From: an uncultured Gemmatimonadales bacterium
Lineage (GTDB): Bacteria; Gemmatimonadota; Gemmatimonadetes; Gemmatimonadales; JACORV01
Length of the DNA stretch: 64,000 bases
Direction: 5' to 3'
NCBI GenBank assembly: GCA_963835535.1
Contig: CAWIFL010000002.1
Location: forward strand, 582,405 to 646,404
Shown here piece after piece: positions 40,576-48,761 of this stretch (the stretch's first letter is position 1; each line of letters begins with the position of its first letter). Position numbers and translations under genes: made by a program. The notes under the pieces were generated by a model. That model did no database searches. It was not told where the DNA came from and saw nothing but the letters and a program-made list of their open reading frames with translations.

Positions 40576-41334
40576 GTGCTGCAGGAGAACGTCGAGGCGT
40601 TGCTCGCGCGGCTGACGCCCAGCGATCTGGTCCTGGACGTCGGCGGGTGGGCGTGCCCCTTCAACCGCGCCCAATGGGTGCTGGACGCGGAGCCCTATGA
40701 AACCCGCGGCTTCTACCACACTTTCGGCGCGCCGGCGTCGCAGGGGCCGGCCGAGGAGTGGTTCACGCGCGAGACCTGGGTGCAGCGGGACATCTGCGAT
40801 CGCTCACCCTGGCCCTTCGCCGACAAGCAGTTCGACTTCGCGGTGTGCTCGCACACGCTGGAGGACCTCCGGGATCCCGTGGGCGTGTGCGTCGAGCTCC
40901 AGCGCGTGGCCAGGCGCGGCTACATCGAGGTACCGTCCCGCGAGTGGGAGTCGTGCCGTGGGATCGAGCGCCCGCGGCAGGCCGGGCTGTCCCACCACCG
41001 GTGGCTCGTGGAGATCCGCGGCTCCACGGTGTCGTTCCTCCCGAAGTACCACATGATCAACGCCGACTGGCGCTTCTCCCTCCCCGCGAGCCATGCGCGC
41101 ACGCTGGACGCACGCGCGTCGATCGCCTGGCTGTGGTGGAACGACCGGTTCGACTGTCGCGAGGTCACGATTCACGGGCTCGCCGCGCAGGAGGCGGCGC
41201 TGCAGGAGTTCGCGCGCAGCATCGTTCCGCAGCCCGGCTGGCTGCTCGCCCTGGATCGCGCCTATCGCGCGGTCACCGCACTTTCAGCTCGCGCGATGCG
41301 GTCGCTCCGCCGCTCGGCCGCGCCACCGCGGTGA
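40576..41334 (+). CDS. methyltransferase-domain protein (class I SAM-dependent, divergent)
   Basis: 252 aa: VLDVGGWACPFNRAQWVLD, FAVCSHTLEDLRDP, RRGYIEVP. Confidence 0.55.
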   Translation: MLQENVEALLARLTPSDLVLDVGGWACPFNRAQWVLDAEPYETRGFYHTFGAPASQGPAEEWFTRETWVQRDICDRSPWPFADKQFDFAVCSHTLEDLRDPVGVCVELQRVARRGYIEVPSREWESCRGIERPRQAGLSHHRWLVEIRGSTVSFLPKYHMINADWRFSLPASHARTLDARASIAWLWWNDRFDCREVTIHGLAAQEAALQEFARSIVPQPGWLLALDRAYRAVTALSARAMRSLRRSAAPPR

Positions 41335-42053
41335 CGCGGGCCTCGGGCTCGGGCGACCCGGCGGGCGCGCGTGCCGGCTACGACGCCTGGCACGCGACGC
41401 TCGACGTGGACGGCGAAGCCGCCGCCCCGTGGCATTTGCTGGTGCAGAAACACCTGGCTCCGGTGGCGGGTCGGCGGGTCATCGAGATCGGCTGCGGCCG
41501 GGGCGGCTTCTCGGCGTGGCTGGCGCGCCAGGGCGCGGACGTCGTGGCGATCGACTTCTCGCGCGTCGCCATCGCGAAGGCCGCCGCGTTCGGAAAACGG
41601 CTCGCCCCCCTGTGCTTCGCAGTGGGCGACATTCAGGCCATCCCGCACCGCTCCGAGGCCTTCGACGTCGCCGTCTCGTGCGAGACCGTCGAGCACGTGA
41701 GCGACCCCGCACGCGCGGTCCGTGAGCTGGCGCGGGTGCTGCGCCCCGGCGGTCGCCTCTATCTCACGACGCCCAACTACCTCGGGATGATGGGGCTCTT
41801 CCGGCTGTATCGGCGCCTGACCGGCCGACCGTACACGGAGGTCGGGCAGCCGATCAACAACCTCACGCTGCTCCCGCGGACCTGCGGCTGGGTGCGGCGC
41901 GCCGGCCTCCGCATCGTGGCGGTGGCCGGCGTGGGCCACTATCTGCCGGTTCCGGGACGCCCTCCGGTCGCGCTCCCGGCGCTCGACCGCGGGCCTCGCG
42001 TCCTGCGGTGGCTGGCGCTGCACTCGCTCGTCGTCGCGGAGAAGCCGCGCTAG
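41331..42053 (+). CDS. class I SAM-dependent methyltransferase
   Basis: GTG 41331 (GTGA overlap). VIEIGCGRGGFS, SCETVEHVSDP, LRPGGRLYLTTPN. Confidence 0.85.
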   Translation: MTRASGSGDPAGARAGYDAWHATLDVDGEAAAPWHLLVQKHLAPVAGRRVIEIGCGRGGFSAWLARQGADVVAIDFSRVAIAKAAAFGKRLAPLCFAVGDIQAIPHRSEAFDVAVSCETVEHVSDPARAVRELARVLRPGGRLYLTTPNYLGMMGLFRLYRRLTGRPYTEVGQPINNLTLLPRTCGWVRRAGLRIVAVAGVGHYLPVPGRPPVALPALDRGPRVLRWLALHSLVVAEKPR

Positions 42054-42070: not shown

Positions 42071-42144
42071 GGGCCCTTAGCTCAGGTGGTTAGAGCGGCG
42101 GACTCATAATCCGTTGGTCGGAGGTTCGAACCCTCCAGGGCCCA
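42071..42144 (+). tRNA. tRNA with CAT anticodon (Met by anticodon; overall resembles lysidine-modified tRNA-Ile2)
   Basis: Hand-folded 74-nt cloverleaf: acceptor GGGCCCT/AGGGCCC, D arm GCTC-AGGTGGTTA-GAGC, anticodon loop CTCATAA, T arm GGAGG-TTCGAAC-CCTCC, discriminator A. CCA is not encoded. It lacks initiator features. I recall it as similar to E. coli ileX. Confidence 0.9.
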
Positions 42145-42273
42145 TTCCAAGCAAGCGACGGCGGCTCAACGTGGACGGTGGCTGGCGGGCGAGTCGCCCG
42201 CTACTGCGGCGCATCTAGTCGGGCACATGCGCCATGGGCAATGGCGCCGCGGTGGCGAGCCGGGAGGAGAGCC

Positions 42274-43023
42274 GTGTTCGTCCTTGGGAAAACCATCGAG
42301 TGGCTTCTGAAGCCGTCTACGGTGGCCATGCTATTACTCACAGCTGGGTGCATCGTTCAGTGGTTTGAGCGCAACCGGCGAACCGGGCGTATTCTCACAT
42401 CGACCGGTGCGGTGATTCTTCTTCTTCTTGGGTTCGGGATTCCCTGTAATGAGATCGCGCGCGTTCTCGAAAGCCGCTACCAGGCCGTTCTGAACCCCTC
42501 CAGGATCACCGGGACACCGTGGATTGTCGTCCTTGGCGGTGGGCATCGCTCGGTCTCTGCTCTCCCGCTTTCAAGTCGGCCGAGTACAGCCGCGTTGTAT
42601 CGACAAGTCGAGGGCCTCCGACTCCTCCACGCCATTGCAGGAAGCCGGCTGCTACTCTCTGGGGGTGCGGTGTTTGACTCGGTCTCCGAAGCGCGGATAG
42701 CGCACGATCTCGCGAGTTCGCTCGGGGTCAGTGACGACGCAATGAAGATTGAGGAACGAGGTCGCACCACCGCAGAGGAAGCCGATGCCATACGCGGGAC
42801 GGTTGCTGACGAGCCATTTCTGCTCGTCACGTCGGCGCTGCACATGCCACGCGCGATGCTCTTGTTTCAGAGCCGAGGGATGCATCCGATTCCGGCGCCG
42901 ACCGACTATCGCACGCCTCTCTCGTCAGCCCCTTCGGCCTACAATGTCGACGTTGCCGACGCCACAATGCACGAACTCCTCGGACTCGCGTGGGCGTGGC
43001 TTCGGCGCAATTCGGGATCGTGA
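42274..43023 (+). CDS. DUF218 / YdcF-ElyC-family envelope protein
   Basis: GTG 42274 is preceded by GGAGG with a 6-nt spacer. TM segments followed by the DUF218 pattern (WIVVLGGG ... TTAEEA ... LLVTSALHMPRA). GC content is visibly lower than in the flanks. Confidence 0.75.
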   Translation: MFVLGKTIEWLLKPSTVAMLLLTAGCIVQWFERNRRTGRILTSTGAVILLLLGFGIPCNEIARVLESRYQAVLNPSRITGTPWIVVLGGGHRSVSALPLSSRPSTAALYRQVEGLRLLHAIAGSRLLLSGGAVFDSVSEARIAHDLASSLGVSDDAMKIEERGRTTAEEADAIRGTVADEPFLLVTSALHMPRAMLLFQSRGMHPIPAPTDYRTPLSSAPSAYNVDVADATMHELLGLAWAWLRRNSGS

Positions 43024-43135
43024 CATGGTCTGTGGCACAATCTCCAGTGACGGCCTTGGCCGGACGCCCCACGGGAAGACGGCTTGGCACGGCTCGATAG
43101 GACTCCTAACCGTGCGGCCCCTCACGCGCGCAGCT

Positions 43136-44020
43136 TCAGGGGACGAGCAGATTCCAGGCGTCGAGCTGGGCCCGCGCGCGCGCATCACGGAAATCCGTCG
43201 CTCCCTCGAGCACGGCCCCCAACACGGCCCTTGGATCCTGAGCCGACGCCGCATAGCGCCGCAGGGCACCGGGCGAGACGTTCGCCGCGTTGTCTCCGCG
43301 CAGGCCGGAGTGCACGAACCGATAGCGCCGTCGAGCAACCGCCAGCGCGGTCTGGCTGATGCTGGCGAGGTCCCCGTACGTCCAGGCGAAGTGCTCGATC
43401 GGCACACCCAAGCGCCGCTCCAGTGCGTCGCCGCTTGCGACGATCTCCTTCTCGAGCCCCTCTATCGACTCGAGCCGCGACAGACGAGGGTGCGTGCACG
43501 TGTGCGCGCCTACGGTGTGGCCCTGCTCCAGCAGAGCTTCGAGGTCCGCCCAACCCATGTTGGACCAGTGCTCCGGCAGCGCTCCGGTGCGGGCGGCCGG
43601 ATAGAGTTCCGCCATGAAGCGCCGCGCCTCCATCCGATCCTCAATGGCAACGAGATCGGACATTGCGAAGAACAGGGCGCGAATCCGCATCGGGTTCAGC
43701 ACCTGCTCCGCTACCGCGCGCTGAGAAGCGAAGCCGTCGTCAAACGTCAGCAGAAGATGCGATCCGCGGATGGGCTCCTGTCCCGCGACCATCGCGGCGA
43801 AACGCTCGGGGGTGACGAAGTTCCAGGTGCGCCCCAGCCAGCGCAGCTGCGACGCGAATCGTTCCCGGTCCTCCGGCGCCACGTCGTGGTAGTACAGCAC
43901 GCGCAGACGACGCGAGGAGGACAAGCCGAGCGGTCGCGTGACTGCTCTGGCCAACCGCAGCGGCGCGCAGGACCAGGCAAGAGCGTTACGCCGCACCCAG
44001 GCACGCATCTGCCCCCTCAC
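43136..44020 (-). CDS. polysaccharide deacetylase (NodB homology domain)
   Basis: 294 aa: LLLTFDDGFASQ, VGAHTCTHPRL. Confidence 0.82.
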   Translation of the reverse strand: MRGQMRAWVRRNALAWSCAPLRLARAVTRPLGLSSSRRLRVLYYHDVAPEDRERFASQLRWLGRTWNFVTPERFAAMVAGQEPIRGSHLLLTFDDGFASQRAVAEQVLNPMRIRALFFAMSDLVAIEDRMEARRFMAELYPAARTGALPEHWSNMGWADLEALLEQGHTVGAHTCTHPRLSRLESIEGLEKEIVASGDALERRLGVPIEHFAWTYGDLASISQTALAVARRRYRFVHSGLRGDNAANVSPGALRRYAASAQDPRAVLGAVLEGATDFRDARARAQLDAWNLLVP

Positions 44021-44040
44021 ATCTCATGAGCCCTGTGGAT

Positions 44041-44065
44041 CAGGCGGGATTCGAACTCGCGGCTG
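44041..44065 (-). pseudogene. tRNA 3'-fragment (T-arm only)
   Basis: Minus strand reads GCGAG-TTCGAAT-CCCGC-CTGATCC, a canonical T-loop with one A.C mismatch in the stem. No matching 5' acceptor strand lies upstream. Confidence 0.35.
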
Positions 44066-44130
44066 CAACGCACCGCCCCGCAACTGAACGAAGAACATAG
44101 TTGGCGCCGATTCGGACCGCGAGCGCCACC

Positions 44131-44150
44131 TTCGAACCCTCCAAGGCCCA
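44131..44150 (+). repeat. direct repeat of the 3' end of the tRNA at 42071-42144 (att-like)
   Basis: TTCGAACCCTCCAAGGCCCA against TTCGAACCCTCCAGGGCCCA at 42125-42144: 19/20 identical, same orientation. Confidence 0.75.
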
Positions 44151-44154
44151 CTGA

Positions 44155-46449
44155 TTACGGCTTCGCGTAGGCCTCGGCGCTCTGCGTGAACACCGCCCCG
44201 TCGAATCCCCCGGCCGCCACGATCCGGCCGTCGGCGACGGTGGCGCAGCCCTGGCCCTCGCGCGCCGTCCCCAGACTCGCCACCTGGCTCCACGTGTTGG
44301 ACGCCGCATTGTAGGCGAAGACCGTCGTCACCGTAGCCGACCCGTTGTCGCCGCCGATGAGGTACACGGTGCCCTTAGCGTCCACCGCCCCGCACGCGCT
44401 GTAACGCGGCGCCGGCAGATTGGCGAGCGTGCGCCACGTCCCGCTCGCAGCATTGAACGCCCAGACGGTGGCCTGCGGCGCGCTGTCGGTCAGCGCGGCC
44501 AGGCCACCCATGACGTAGATCTCTCCGCTCGGCGCGAGCACCACCGCCGCGTCCTGCCGCGGCGCCGGCAACGGCACGCCCGCGGACCACGTGTGGAGGG
44601 TGAGGTCGTACGCCTCCACCGTGGCGATCGTTACGGTGTCGCCCCAGCTGACCCCGCCGAACACGTAGAACTTCCCGTTCGCGATCGCCCCGACGGCCTC
44701 GGCGTGCGGGACCGCCATCGGCGGCAGCGCCGTCCACGTGTCGGTGGACGGGTCGTAGACCTGTGCGTCGGCCACCGCTGAATCGGTGTCGTACCCGCCG
44801 GCGGCGTAGATCCTGCCGTCGGGCCCGAGCGCTGCGGACTGGCCCGTTCGCGGGGCGACCAGCGGACTGACGGCCGTCCACTGGCCGGACGCCGGATCGA
44901 AGCGCTCGACGGCCGCGGTGAGGTTCTGCGTGGCGTCCCACCCGCCGATCGCGTAGGCCCGTCCCTGGTTGTCGGCCACCAGCGGGTTCAGGAAGTGCGG
45001 GCCCAGCATCGACGCGATCGGCGACCAGGCGCGCGGCGTTCCGCCGGTCCTGACGGCGCCGCAGCCCTCGAACTCGCCCCGGTCCCTGCCCTCATCCACC
45101 GGGCCGGACAGGCACGCCCCGGTCGCGCCGGGAGTGAGGGTCAGCGCGTTGATCGGGAAGCGGAAGATCCGTTCTCTCGCATGGTCGCCCCTATGGTCGC
45201 CCCCGCGGCCGCCATCACGCCGGGTCGGAAGGTGCTCGTCACAGGCCCGCTCGCCGCCGTTGCTGCCGCCACGCAGCTGGAGCGCCGACGCACCCGCAAA
45301 CTGCAGGGCGCATCCCTCGGCGTGCTGGACGTCCACATCCCCACCACTCAGCAGTCCGACGCGGACGTAACCGGTGTCCACGCTCAGGTCCACGTGGTGC
45401 GTCGAATCACCGGGCTGGATGTCGATCCGCGCGCGCATCGGAAGCGCGGGGCGGAATGCCTCGACCGAGCCCAACGGAACGTTCGTCGAGCTGAGCCCAC
45501 CGATGGCGTACAGCGTGCCGTCCGGGCCGGCGACGGTGGCACCGAGGCGCCGGGGAACCGACAGGAGCGGCAGGCCGGTCCATGCGTTGGTCGCCGCGCT
45601 GTATTGCTGGGCCAGCGTGCCGTTGGTGACGCCGGCGTTCTCCCCGCCCGCTATGAAGAGGCGCCCCGCGAGAGCTGCCGCGCCCAACGCGTCACGCCCG
45701 ACGTCGAGGGGCGTGGACACACTCCAGGCGTCTCCACCCGGCGTGTACACCAGGACCTGCGTCAGTGGCCCGGACCCGTCGTTGCCGCCGATCAGGTAGA
45801 CTCGACCGTCGCCCGCCGTGGCCGCCGCCGCCATGAAGCGCGCCGCGGGCAGGCCGCTGGCCGCAGTCCAGGTGTTGGTGGCGGGACTGTAAGCCTCGAC
45901 GGCAGGGCTCAAGCCGCCGGCGTCACCGCCGATCGCGTAGATCGTCCCGTCCACTCCCAGCGCCACCGCCAGGTAGCTGCGCGGCGTGGGTAACGGAGCC
46001 ACAGGAGTCCAGGTGCCAGCGGCGGGATCGAGCCGGAGCACCGTCGGGTTGGGGCTGCCGAATGGCGGGCTTCGGCCGCCGATGACGTACACCATGCCGT
46101 CGGCGCCCGTCACGGCTGCCAGGCCAGCGCGCGGCTCGGGCAGTGGGGGGCCCGCGGTCCAGCGGTGGCTGAGCGGGTTATAGATCTCTGTGCTTGCGAG
46201 CGTGGAGGCTCCGACCCCGATACCGCCGATGACGTAGATCTTCCCGGCGGCGGTCGCGGCGCCGAACGCGTAGCGCGGCGTGGCGAGGGGCGCCATGGCC
46301 GTCCAGGATGACGGCGACCTGTCGAGGGACGGGGTGAGGGCGAGGGCGGCGACCTGCGACGCCGGAGCCGTAGCGTCGCGACAGGACGCGAGGGCCAGGG
46401 CGGCGGACACACCAACCACGCCCCTGGGGAAAGCCGCTCTCCAGCGCAT
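44155..46449 (-). CDS. lipoprotein with two Kelch-repeat beta-propellers
   Basis: ATG 46449 begins MRWRAAFPRGVVGVSAALALASC (lipobox LASC). Many Kelch-type units (YxxGG, W..v..lp.pR) fall in two blocks, separated by a roughly 130-aa middle region. Confidence 0.8.
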   Translation of the reverse strand: MRWRAAFPRGVVGVSAALALASCRDATAPASQVAALALTPSLDRSPSSWTAMAPLATPRYAFGAATAAGKIYVIGGIGVGASTLASTEIYNPLSHRWTAGPPLPEPRAGLAAVTGADGMVYVIGGRSPPFGSPNPTVLRLDPAAGTWTPVAPLPTPRSYLAVALGVDGTIYAIGGDAGGLSPAVEAYSPATNTWTAASGLPAARFMAAAATAGDGRVYLIGGNDGSGPLTQVLVYTPGGDAWSVSTPLDVGRDALGAAALAGRLFIAGGENAGVTNGTLAQQYSAATNAWTGLPLLSVPRRLGATVAGPDGTLYAIGGLSSTNVPLGSVEAFRPALPMRARIDIQPGDSTHHVDLSVDTGYVRVGLLSGGDVDVQHAEGCALQFAGASALQLRGGSNGGERACDEHLPTRRDGGRGGDHRGDHARERIFRFPINALTLTPGATGACLSGPVDEGRDRGEFEGCGAVRTGGTPRAWSPIASMLGPHFLNPLVADNQGRAYAIGGWDATQNLTAAVERFDPASGQWTAVSPLVAPRTGQSAALGPDGRIYAAGGYDTDSAVADAQVYDPSTDTWTALPPMAVPHAEAVGAIANGKFYVFGGVSWGDTVTIATVEAYDLTLHTWSAGVPLPAPRQDAAVVLAPSGEIYVMGGLAALTDSAPQATVWAFNAASGTWRTLANLPAPRYSACGAVDAKGTVYLIGGDNGSATVTTVFAYNAASNTWSQVASLGTAREGQGCATVADGRIVAAGGFDGAVFTQSAEAYAKP

Positions 46450-46562
46450 CGCCAGCACCACAGTCACCCACTCTGTTGGGGAACTTCAGCGAGGCACCAA
46501 GTTAGAGGCGCCCCGACTAAATTACCAGGATGATTCTCACGTTCTAGCGGGCGCGGCTTCGC

Positions 46563-47339
46563 ATGGACGATCGGAACGGCGTCACCCAGGGGCACTACTA
46601 CCGCAAGCAGCTCGGCTGCGCGAGCGGCATCATCGCGTGGAGCCACCGATCGCGCTTCCGGCTCGCCGTGCGGCTCGCGGGGCGCGCGCCCGGACGGATG
46701 CTGGACTACGGCTGCGGCGACGGGACGTTCCTGGCCATGGTCGCGGACCGCATCCGCGAGGGCTGCGGCGCCGACATCGCCCCGGACCAGATCGCGGATT
46801 GCCGGGAGCGCCTCGCCGCCTTCACGAACCTCCGCTTTTGCACTGTCGCCGAGCTGGCCGACGCGTCCCGGGACGGGGCATACGACGTCGTGATGTGCAT
46901 GGAGACGCTGGAGCACTGCACGGATGCGGCGGCCGAGGCCGTTCTCCGGGACCTCGCCCGCCTGGTGTCGCCGGGCGGCCGGGTGATCATCAGCGTCCCG
47001 ATCGAAACCGGGCCGACGTTCCTGCTGAAGACGGTGATCCGCAAGCTCGCCGCGTGGCGCGGCCTGAGCGACTATCGGTTTTACGAGTCGTACACGCTGC
47101 GCGACGCGTTCCGCATGCTGCTGGCGAAGCGCAGCACCGCTCTCGACCGGCCCGTCTACGGCGAGCCGGACTCTCCGTTTCACTCGCACTACGGCTTCAA
47201 CTGGCGAGCGACGCGGGAGCGTGTGGCCACCCACCTCAGGATCGAGCGGACGGTGTTCTCCCCGCTCGGGCTGCTCGGCGGCGTCGTGAGCAGCCAGGCA
47301 TGGTTCCTGTGCCGGCCGCTGGCGCGGGGCCCCTCCTGA
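46563..47339 (+). CDS. class I SAM-dependent methyltransferase
   Basis: 258 aa: MLDYGCGDGTF, CMETLEHCTD, VSPGGRVIISVP. Confidence 0.82.
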   Translation: MDDRNGVTQGHYYRKQLGCASGIIAWSHRSRFRLAVRLAGRAPGRMLDYGCGDGTFLAMVADRIREGCGADIAPDQIADCRERLAAFTNLRFCTVAELADASRDGAYDVVMCMETLEHCTDAAAEAVLRDLARLVSPGGRVIISVPIETGPTFLLKTVIRKLAAWRGLSDYRFYESYTLRDAFRMLLAKRSTALDRPVYGEPDSPFHSHYGFNWRATRERVATHLRIERTVFSPLGLLGGVVSSQAWFLCRPLARGPS

Positions 47340-47440
47340 ACGGCCCGCCGCCGGACGGCCCGGCCGGGCCCATTCCCGAATGCCCGCCGCCGTGGCACGA
47401 TGCGCCGGCCCCGTCTATCTTGTTCGCGGTCCGCAGGCCC

Positions 47441-47514
47441 GGGTGGTTAGCTCAGCTGGTTAGAGCGCCGGTCTCACATACCGGAGGTCGAGGGTTCGAG
47501 TCCCCCACCGCCCA
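47441..47514 (+). tRNA. tRNA-Val (CAC)
   Basis: Hand-folded 74-nt cloverleaf: acceptor GGGTGGT/ACCGCCC (one G.U), D arm GCTC-AGCTGGTTA-GAGC, anticodon stem CCGGT/ACCGG with loop CTCACAT, T loop TTCGAGT (one A.C in the T stem), discriminator A. Confidence 0.88.
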
Positions 47515-47537
47515 CTGACGCCACGCGTCCCCCGCTC

Positions 47538-48761
47538 GTGCTGAACCCCATGCAGATCCGCCGCCTTCTGGCGCGCACCCTCCGCGTCGCGCTCGACGGT
47601 GGCCCCGCCCACGCGCAGCTCATCCAGCGGTGGGCGCAGGCCCAGGCGGCCGAGGCGTCGTGGCTCGCGGCCCTCACGTGGGACGGTGTCGGCGCCGCCG
47701 CCGGCTGGGCGCTGCGGGCGCTGGATCTCGGGGGGGTCGCCCCGCCCGAGGTGGACGCCGCAGCGTCCGAGGCGTACGAAGAGGCCCGCCAGATCAGCCT
47801 GGTGCAGGTCGCCGACCTCACGCGCCTCGGCGTCGAGCTGGCCTCCGTCCAGATTCCGTGCATCGCGCTCAAGGGCTCCGCGCTCCTGGTCGGGAGTCTC
47901 TGCCCCGCCCTCGGCATCCGGTGGATGGCCGACGTCGACGTCCTGGTGCGCGAGCAGCAGGTCGAAGACGCGGCCTGGGTGCTCGAGTCGCTCGGTTTCG
48001 CGCGCGGTGTGACGCGCGACCTCTCGGTGCCCGAATTCTCCCGTCCGTATCACGACACCTTCACCAGCGTCGACGGCCGCTCGATCGAGCTGCACTGGCG
48101 CGTCGGCCCCGCCCGCTGGGGAAAGACCGCCGCGGCCGACCGGTGGTTCGAGCGCGCCACGCCGTCGTCCGCCGACGGCATCCTCCTGCCCTCGGCGCTC
48201 GACCTGTTCTGGCATTTCCTGGTGCACGACGCGCGCAATCACGCCTGGAGCAGCGGCTCCCTGCGGGCCGCTCTCGACCTGGCGCTCGTGGCGCGGGCGC
48301 CGGGCTTCACGCTCGTGGACGTGATGCGGCGACTGGACGAGGACCCGCGGCCGGGGCCGCTCCTGGAGGCGATCGCCGACGCCGCGACGCTCTCGCCGAT
48401 CCTCGCGGCGGAGATCGAGCCGTCTCCGGACCCGCGGTATCTCAGGCTGGCGCGGTGGCGCGACGGCATCGGCCGGCGGTCCTGGAAGCTCCAGCGGCGG
48501 TCCGAGGCCATCGCGTGGGGGGTGACGCTGGACCGCGCCCGGCGGTTCGGCGGCTGGGGCACGGTGGCCGATCACGCGCTGCGCGCCGTCCCCGAACCCA
48601 CGCCGCGCCGCTCGCCCGGTGCGCTCCTCCGCCGCTGGTTCCTCACGCTCCGTCACGTCGCGTTCGTCGGCGCGCTCGCGGCCTCGCACCTGATCTCGGT
48701 GAGTGGCGGTGTCACGGGCCGGCGCGCGCTCCCTAGCCCAGCGCCTCCCGGTACACGGTGA
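47538..48761 (+). CDS. uncharacterised nucleotidyltransferase-family protein (NTP_transf_5-like)
   Basis: 407 aa: IPCIALKGSALL ... RWMADVDVLV ... IELHWRV, typical of that family as I recall it. The 3' end overlaps the convergent GT4 gene by 29 nt. Confidence 0.6.
   Translation: MLNPMQIRRLLARTLRVALDGGPAHAQLIQRWAQAQAAEASWLAALTWDGVGAAAGWALRALDLGGVAPPEVDAAASEAYEEARQISLVQVADLTRLGVELASVQIPCIALKGSALLVGSLCPALGIRWMADVDVLVREQQVEDAAWVLESLGFARGVTRDLSVPEFSRPYHDTFTSVDGRSIELHWRVGPARWGKTAAADRWFERATPSSADGILLPSALDLFWHFLVHDARNHAWSSGSLRAALDLALVARAPGFTLVDVMRRLDEDPRPGPLLEAIADAATLSPILAAEIEPSPDPRYLRLARWRDGIGRRSWKLQRRSEAIAWGVTLDRARRFGGWGTVADHALRAVPEPTPRRSPGALLRRWFLTLRHVAFVGALAASHLISVSGGVTGRRALPSPAPPGTR

Follow-up and report, generated by a model that had tools for sequence, protein, structure and literature searches.

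Probable residues of two integrations into a tRNA(CAT) gene within a glycan-synthesis locus of a Gemmatimonadales bacterium

We examined a tRNA gene and the foreign-looking DNA behind it in a 64,000-nucleotide stretch (hereafter the window) of contig CAWIFL010000002.1 from an uncultured Gemmatimonadales bacterium. ARAGORN calls the gene at 42071-42144 (+) with anticodon CAT and labels it Met, and Rfam matches it with 71 bits; we take its acceptor stem (C4-G69, C5-G68) and overall sequence to be reminiscent of tRNA-Ile2 (ileX). The 5.3 kb between this tRNA(CAT) gene and tRNA-Val(CAC) at 47441-47515 (+; ARAGORN, 66 bits in Rfam) hold genes for a DUF218 protein, a deacetylase, a Kelch-repeat protein, and a methyltransferase, and a conserved NTP_transf_5 gene (47538-48761) follows tRNA-Val. 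The last 20 nt of tRNA(CAT) (TTCGAACCCTCCAGGGCCCA, 42125-42144) are repeated on the same strand at 44131-44150 with 19 of 20 positions identical, the single change being G to A. The sequence from the tRNA to the end of this repeat, 42145-44150, is very probably what remains of two site-specific integrations that separately targeted the 3' part of the tRNA gene, within a longer tandem array.

The unit nearest the tRNA, the DUF218 islet, spans 42145-43120 (+) with a GC content of 0.627 and is delimited by alignment with L023, one of the contigs (L numbers) used for comparison. Its cargo is an ElyC-like DUF218 gene of 249 aa with a GTG start, at 42274-43023 (+). The protein matches Pfam DUF218 (PF02698) with an E-value of 2.9e-24 and 85.9 bits, above the cut-off of 27.6, and aligns through residues 1-247 of 249 with the NCBIfam ElyC equivalog (4.2e-47), for which its 160.8 bits remain under the cut-off of 205. 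The deacetylase islet follows at 43126-44130 (-; GC 0.678) and contains a NodB-type Polysacc_deac_1 gene (PF01522, 4e-15) on the minus strand, covering 43136-44008 with an ATG start or reaching 44020 with a GTG start. As the initial annotation had stated, neither gene in this interval is an integrase by Pfam content, and tblastn with a sister-strain integrase found no match in the whole window. Its observation that both genes are poorer in GC than their surroundings also holds: GC and GC content at third codon positions (GC3) are 0.608 and 0.66 for the DUF218 gene and 0.68 and 0.81 for the deacetylase gene, compared with a GC3 of 0.88-0.93 for the Kelch, methyltransferase, and NTP_transf_5 genes and of 0.88-0.95 for neighbouring genes overall. 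GC content climbs with distance from the tRNA, from the DUF218 and deacetylase units to 0.718 in the Kelch and methyltransferase genes and 0.73-0.74 in the flanks.

The 20-nt repeat, which we call frag_c, is read from the repeat itself and from sister-strain alignment as a displaced 3' fragment of tRNA(CAT), the putative attachment (attR) scar of the deacetylase islet at 44131-44150 (+). No second match to the 20-mer appeared in any of 100 dinucleotide-preserving shuffles, and a base-composition estimate gives a probability of about 1e-5 that the window contains by chance any match with no more than one mismatch. At the same position, strains that are 97-98% identical to the window at the nucleotide level (L008, L023, L026, and L021) carry 36 nt of the tRNA 3' end (ATCCGTTGGTCGGAGGTTCGAACCCTCCAAGGCCCA) with the same G-to-A change. 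Relative to them the window has lost the first 16 nt and kept 20, and the 20-mer reads as the stump of a 36-nt copy. The recurrence of the tRNA 3' end was a claim of the initial annotation, and the ARAGORN and Rfam calls, the shuffles, and the 36-nt copies bear it out. Rfam at permissive thresholds, which is unsuited to pieces so short, reported none of the tRNA fragments, and a scan of viral contigs (IMG/VR) with the 22-nt tRNA end gave no match and hence no sign of a phage attP there.

Scanning metagenomes for the 3'-terminal 32 nt of the tRNA gave 20 stretches, several of them 98% identical to the window. We used ARAGORN to tell full tRNAs from isolated fragments and compared each copy with its flanks, which yielded ten isolated fragments of at least 32 nt. 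All fragments end at the tRNA 3' end, and they start at one position in the anticodon loop or are shorter. The identity block copied at island ends is the last 42 nt of tRNA(CAT), 42103-42144 (CTCATAATCC...GGGCCCA), as defined from the isolated fragments of L023, L026, L021, L015, L030, and L024. Such 42-nt fragments, running from CTCATAA in the anticodon loop to the discriminator A, are found in those contigs (two copies in L023) and in L019.

Read in the orientation of the window, L023 has in order frag_a (42 nt, perfect), a DUF218 unit of 1.2 kb, frag_b (42 nt, perfect), 80 nt, the deacetylase gene, frag_c, the Kelch and methyltransferase genes, and tRNA-Val. The initial annotation had described a single 2-kb islet between the tRNA and the repeat; its gene content of DUF218 and deacetylase alone stands, and the arrangements in L023 and L026 divide it into two islets. 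Window positions 42170-43124 are 94.7% identical to the L023 unit bounded by the two 42-nt fragments, and sister strains carry the deacetylase islet at 98% identity, bounded by the 42-nt frag_b and the 36-nt frag_c. The 25 nt past the window tRNA (42145-42169) equal the flank after frag_a in L023 and L030, so the window tRNA itself sits in the place of frag_a. At the junction of the two islets, the window is without 118 nt of L023 (5447-5330), comprising 38 nt of the 42-nt frag_b and the 80-nt flank. What is left of this attachment copy is a CTCA vestige at 43121-43124, which together with the deletion junction occupies 43121-43125 (+). L015 displays another deletion variant of the array, in which the 3' part of the DUF218 gene is joined straight to sequence that lies about 2.7 kb further toward the tRNA in L023.

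Several sister strains (L026/L032, L018/L021, and L008) are missing the DUF218 unit. L008, at 97.7% nucleotide identity to the window, was found by a protein search through its 97%-identical deacetylase. Directly after the tRNA in L026/L032 and L018/L021 stands an island of 14.2 kb, the tRNA-proximal end of which is also displayed by L022 and L027. Its first gene, beside the tRNA, encodes a 379-aa tyrosine recombinase (L032:3985-5124; PF00589, 3.8e-12) with weak NCBIfam matches to XerA and integron integrases; later genes encode a DUF3631 protein, a Ser/Thr kinase, RCC1-repeat proteins, and a Big_1 protein. We saw no conjugation genes in this island, and its far end is a perfect 42-nt fragment abutting the deacetylase unit. 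A tyrosine integrase of the kind that the initial annotation had proposed to look for is thus present at this tRNA in sister strains, and this island and the 36-nt copies of the tRNA end support its view that site-specific integration is what a second copy of a tRNA 3' end on the far side of foreign-looking DNA signifies. The relatives likewise support its suggestion that decay or repeated use of the site accounts for the missing integrase. The element-side arms beside the fragments differ from unit to unit, and several distinct elements therefore used the site. Motifs GTGCCGAGT/GTGCCAAGT are repeated in arms of the 14.2-kb type (L026, L021, L024, L007, L016, and L020), lying just inside the right island ends at L026 3512-3560 (-), L021 4256-4303 (+), L024 130-164, and L007 860-894; they may be arm-type integrase binding sites.

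An integrase relic occurs within the DUF218 unit of other strains as well. The unit in L023 and L030 holds a 232-nt stretch that is absent from the window, where it is deleted between 42169 and 42170, and this stretch includes a degenerate tyrosine-integrase remnant (L023 6458-6574 (+), L030 187-303 (+)). The remnant is 52% identical over 40 aa to residues 297-336 of the L032 integrase (tblastn, E 0.007) and has the position and orientation expected for an integrase belonging to the unit. It offers a slight but fitting indication that the 1-kb DUF218 unit may once have been a full element.

The aligned contigs show directly that the repeats share one register, that units which some strains have and others lack are delimited exactly by the repeats, and that sister strains possess an intact integrase island at this site. 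Under serial integration, the incoming elements would each have carried a tyrosine integrase and an attP copying the last 42 nt of the tRNA. Integration would have rebuilt the tRNA and displaced the earlier 3' end downstream as a fragment, along with older elements, and the tRNA(CAT) gene of the window appears to be the regenerated target, on the attL side. We infer the order and age of the events from position: units nearer the tRNA should be younger because new arrivals enter the intact tRNA, with which the GC gradient accords. The deacetylase element would have arrived first, leaving frag_c beside the Kelch gene, and the DUF218 element later, leaving frag_b. Each small unit would formerly have possessed its own integrase, which the weak remnant supports for the DUF218 unit, and both elements would have shed it and nearly all other genes to become single-gene units resembling cis-mobilizable elements (CIMEs). 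Small deletions in the window strain would then have removed 16 nt of frag_c, the 118 nt including frag_b, and the 232-nt stretch with the integrase pseudogene remnant.

To compare more distant relatives, we used a genome scan anchored on NTP_transf_5, which gave four Gemmatimonadales metagenome-assembled genomes (65-71% identity), together with the metagenome contig L001, found via the DUF218 protein. In all five (L001 and L004-L007), tRNA-Val is followed by NTP_transf_5, making tRNA-Val the conserved right border of an interval whose content is different each time. L001 has one FkbM-type methyltransferase gene (0.9 kb); L004 has DUF4440, RsgA, BTAD/TPR regulator, and LysR genes (7.5 kb); L005 has genes for an Ig-domain protein, DUF2277, and a beta-lactamase-fold protein (4.8 kb); and L007 has an IS3-like start, DUF4440, and an isolated 32-nt tRNA(CAT) 3' fragment 70 nt before tRNA-Val. 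Nearly every relative differs in this way (L001, L004, L005, L007, L019, and L028). Both the DUF218 and the deacetylase units are missing in L001, L004, L005, and L028, and the breakpoints fall at the tRNA or its fragments. Relatives carrying the same two genes here at host-like composition would, by the refuting condition of the initial annotation, have called integration into question; these relatives do not carry them, the interval from tRNA(CAT) to tRNA-Val differs in nearly every genome, and the interpretation stands. L019 presents a further islet of 2.4 kb (161-2696), flanked on one side by tRNA(CAT) and on the other by a 42-nt fragment that has one mismatch and abuts tRNA-Val, with a DUF1254/DUF1214 protein and a HicA/HicB toxin-antitoxin pair as cargo and without an integrase.

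The variable array goes on past 44150 and ends shortly ahead of tRNA-Val. The gene for the 770-aa Kelch-repeat protein (44155-46467 (-); Pfam Kelch_1 1.7e-96, GC3 0.88) is missing in L001, L004, L005, and L028, from which it appears to be an older variable unit. Next to it, the 258-aa S-adenosylmethionine (SAM)-dependent methyltransferase gene (Pfam, 46563-47339 (+)) is 76.6% identical at the nucleotide level to L028 720-1659, the sole gene between both tRNAs there. A possible oldest scar, GGGCCCATTCC at 47366-47376 (+), repeats 42138-42148, made up of the final 7 nt of the tRNA and the TTCC behind it, and matches the tRNA end and flank of L001. It lies 19 nt ahead of a promoter-like block of tRNA-Val, and in L007, L016, L019, and L020 the equivalent place, immediately before the tRNA-Val promoter, is occupied by a fragment of 32 to 42 nt. 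We tentatively regard it as probably an older scar. The promoter-like block consists of GTGGCACG, about 14 nt, and CCGTCTATCTT (window 47392-47430) and is also seen at about 2360-2400 in L001, 955-990 in L007, and 1540-1575 in L028, Gemmatimonadales relatives that are just about 73-77% identical.

The nearest homologues of the DUF218 gene (70-79% at the aa level) occur in four distinct contexts, with DNA homology spanning only the ribosome-binding site to the stop codon, and every copy keeps a low GC3 of 0.66-0.73. The gene itself thus appears from these comparisons to travel on its own. In two metagenome contigs, a shared remnant encoding ..LTDHVWTIEEMPAMMD precedes the DUF218 gene (L001 560-650 and L003 1-90). 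It appears to resemble a transposase C-terminus; if it is one, the DUF218 gene would also be mobile by an att-independent route. The L001 arrangement had at first led us to infer a local inversion or transposition in the window, which the 98%-identical strains made unnecessary, L001 being another context.

Several observations weigh against two integrations followed by decay. The window islets contain no integrase, so that past mobility is drawn from other strains, and the comparators are metagenome or Logan contigs, those of Ga0187849, Ga0187854, Ga0187889, and SRR13201824 coming from peat, whose arrangements were assessed at the level of contigs, not reads. The integrase remnant in L023 is weak, with in-frame stops and the catalytic motif gone. 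In the comparison of the window with L023, identity is lower in the DUF218 unit (94.7%) than in the flanks (98%), which is unexpected under a single shared integration and suggests recombination exchange or separate acquisition of the unit. In L001, a 79%-identical DUF218 gene sits upstream of the same tRNA, beside a different remnant; therefore, the gene moves by other routes too. Further along the array, a search of the gap that separates the Kelch from the methyltransferase gene (46468-46562) yielded no scar, and the one at 47366-47376 is just 11 nt long and its alignments to L028 and L007 are weak.

The same divergence of the DUF218 unit would suit a different account, in which the small units are still-mobile, integrase-less CIME-like cassettes moved in trans by a co-resident integrase or by homologous recombination across the 42-nt repeats and the tRNA. 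The two perfect repeats around the L023 unit, and the presence or absence of the unit precisely at its repeat boundaries among 98%-identical strains, speak for such exchange, and mobilisation of CIMEs in cis or trans is documented elsewhere (PMC5704250). We nevertheless consider it unlikely. All arrangements seen fit simple serial integration and decay, and neither an excised circle nor an empty junction was observed. In the window copy one boundary repeat is deleted and the other truncated, so this copy is no longer excisable as a unit. It is also quite improbable that the gap between tRNA(CAT) and tRNA-Val works as an integron-like cassette site, in which the integrase of whatever large island is resident would act in trans to shuffle single-gene, integrase-less units of about 1 kb that are flanked by 42-nt att repeats; if it did, the envelope- and glycan-modifying genes of a polysaccharide locus would vary from strain to strain.

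A single element of 2 kb that brought in the DUF218 and deacetylase genes together by one integration, and lost its integrase later, would account for the fact that in the window the outer repeat pair alone is visible. In other bacteria (L009-L014), sugar operons contain a deacetylase gene that overlaps a DUF218 gene, which made a shared origin look plausible. This account is very unlikely, however: a full 42-nt fragment separates the two genes in L023, in L026/L021 and L008 the deacetylase unit is unaccompanied by the DUF218 unit, and the genes are unlike in GC3 (0.66 versus 0.81). They are also convergent here rather than arranged as an operon, and the DUF218 partner in the operons is only 28-29% identical to that of the window, for which reason their adjacency in the window was assembled independently. 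Least of all, and to a negligible degree, do we credit a chance match, a decayed tandem tRNA duplicate, or a conserved functional element such as a terminator of the Kelch gene: the repeat is short, lies 4 nt past the Kelch stop codon, and is joined by further 19-20-nt near-matches in this GC-rich region, but it has no second match in any shuffle and 36-nt counterparts in sister strains, the fragments are always from the 3' and never the 5' part of the tRNA and share one start position in the anticodon loop, their length varies among strains, so they are decaying and not conserved, and the window copy is without the 5' strand of the T-stem and therefore can form no hairpin.

The sugar operons deserve mention in their own right. 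After the sister strains, the next nearest deacetylase homologues (67-69%) are found in such operons in organisms of about 63% GC, each with a DUF218 gene directly behind it. In L009 (5029-6724) and L012 (10001-11675), the operons are unrelated dTDP-sugar/aminotransferase operons, and the 67-69%-identical deacetylase gene overlaps the DUF218 gene downstream. Deacetylase and DUF218 thus seem from these contexts to be a recurrent functional pairing, and we speculate that selection might favour the union of the two functions. A native functional pair as the origin of the window genes was considered and rejected, given the 28-29% identity of the operon DUF218 proteins and the sister strains with one gene alone.

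About 70 nt from the frag_c scar, a piece on the minus strand (44036-44060) resembles the T-arm and acceptor 3' strand of another tRNA, reading GCGAG-TTCGAAT-CCCGC-CTGATCC-A; it was identified by sequence reading and a pattern scan. The initial annotation had called it a second tRNA T-arm fragment in the opposite orientation. The piece is indeed present, and its derivation from a tRNA is unprovable, as a scan with a loose T-arm pattern gives six hits in the window where simulations give 2.2 +/- 1.4. It contains one of the three TTCGAA sites of the window, is kept with one mismatch in L008 and L023, and like the fragments went unreported by Rfam.

The whole interval is flanked on both sides by a glycan-synthesis cluster, as judged by Pfam, with GT4 and methyltransferase genes upstream and NTP_transf_5 downstream; L001, which is syntenic, continues with GT4, Glycos_transf_4, and Wzy_C genes. 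Upstream of tRNA(CAT), a 431-aa open reading frame at 40576-42053 is really two genes, with a GC3 frame switch near 41340: an uncharacterised 252-aa open reading frame (40576-41334) and then a Methyltransf_11 gene (about 41340-42053).

Conceptually nothing here is new, since the type of structure is already well known as a bacterial route for the uptake of foreign genes. What the locus documents for the Gemmatimonadales, which are common in soil and peat and whose mobile elements are little described, is a hot spot of integration at a tRNA together with the integrase and the 42-nt att block that belong to it. Strains with 98%-identical flanks provide an unusually clean series of island stacking and wear, from the intact 14.2-kb island, through the 1.2-kb unit that keeps perfect repeats and a relic of an integrase, to the fused and truncated copy of the window. 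For annotation, the ElyC-like and NodB-type genes are best treated as strain-variable acquisitions and not as core members of the polysaccharide cluster.

Among known systems, the locus most resembles the tandem arrays of tDNA islands described by Islander, whose scheme includes an anticodon-centred ("A") class of attP (PMC4383910); crossover sublocations in the anticodon loop and in the T-loop are attributed there to Williams 2002. As in those arrays, the 3' part of a tRNA is targeted, the tRNA is regenerated, a displaced 3' fragment marks the far end, and several islands lie head to tail at one tDNA. The 42-nt fragments, from anticodon loop to tRNA 3' end, have the extent of an "A" class att. 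An intact tRNA (42071-42144) with a same-strand fragment at the other end (44131-44150) and absence from relatives with boundaries at att copies are both found here, and an integrase inside the island, beside the tRNA, is found just in the 14.2-kb island of the sister strains. The window units differ in having no integrase, about 1 kb and one gene each, and two boundary repeats damaged by deletion, and Islander would not call them because its filter demands one integrase per fragment.

The units also resemble the CIMEs of streptococci, for which an accretion model describes integration, decay to an att-bounded remnant, and renewed integration (PMC5704250), with CIMEs and site-specific accretion in ICESt1-type elements credited there to Pavlovic 2004 and Bellanger 2011. 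In both cases, att-bounded units stripped of their genes for integration and transfer pile up as other elements later enter the same target; here, one cargo gene per unit remains, and a degenerate integrase remnant is present just in L023 and L030. The host group (Gemmatimonadota) and the target (a CAT-anticodon tRNA) are different. Functional attL and attR sites are a CIME trait that the window does not retain, frag_b being deleted save for CTCA and frag_c reduced to 20 nt with one mismatch; by sequence, just the L023 copy of the DUF218 unit, with its two perfect repeats, keeps them.

The setting is familiar as well. tRNA-linked hypervariable hot spots within surface-polysaccharide loci are a general concept, and the present hot spot is likewise embedded in a cluster that encodes glycosyltransferases, methyltransferases, and a Wzy_C homologue. 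Its cargo, as predicted from sequence, is similarly related to the envelope and to glycans, comprising an ElyC-like protein, a NodB-type deacetylase, and a SAM-dependent methyltransferase.

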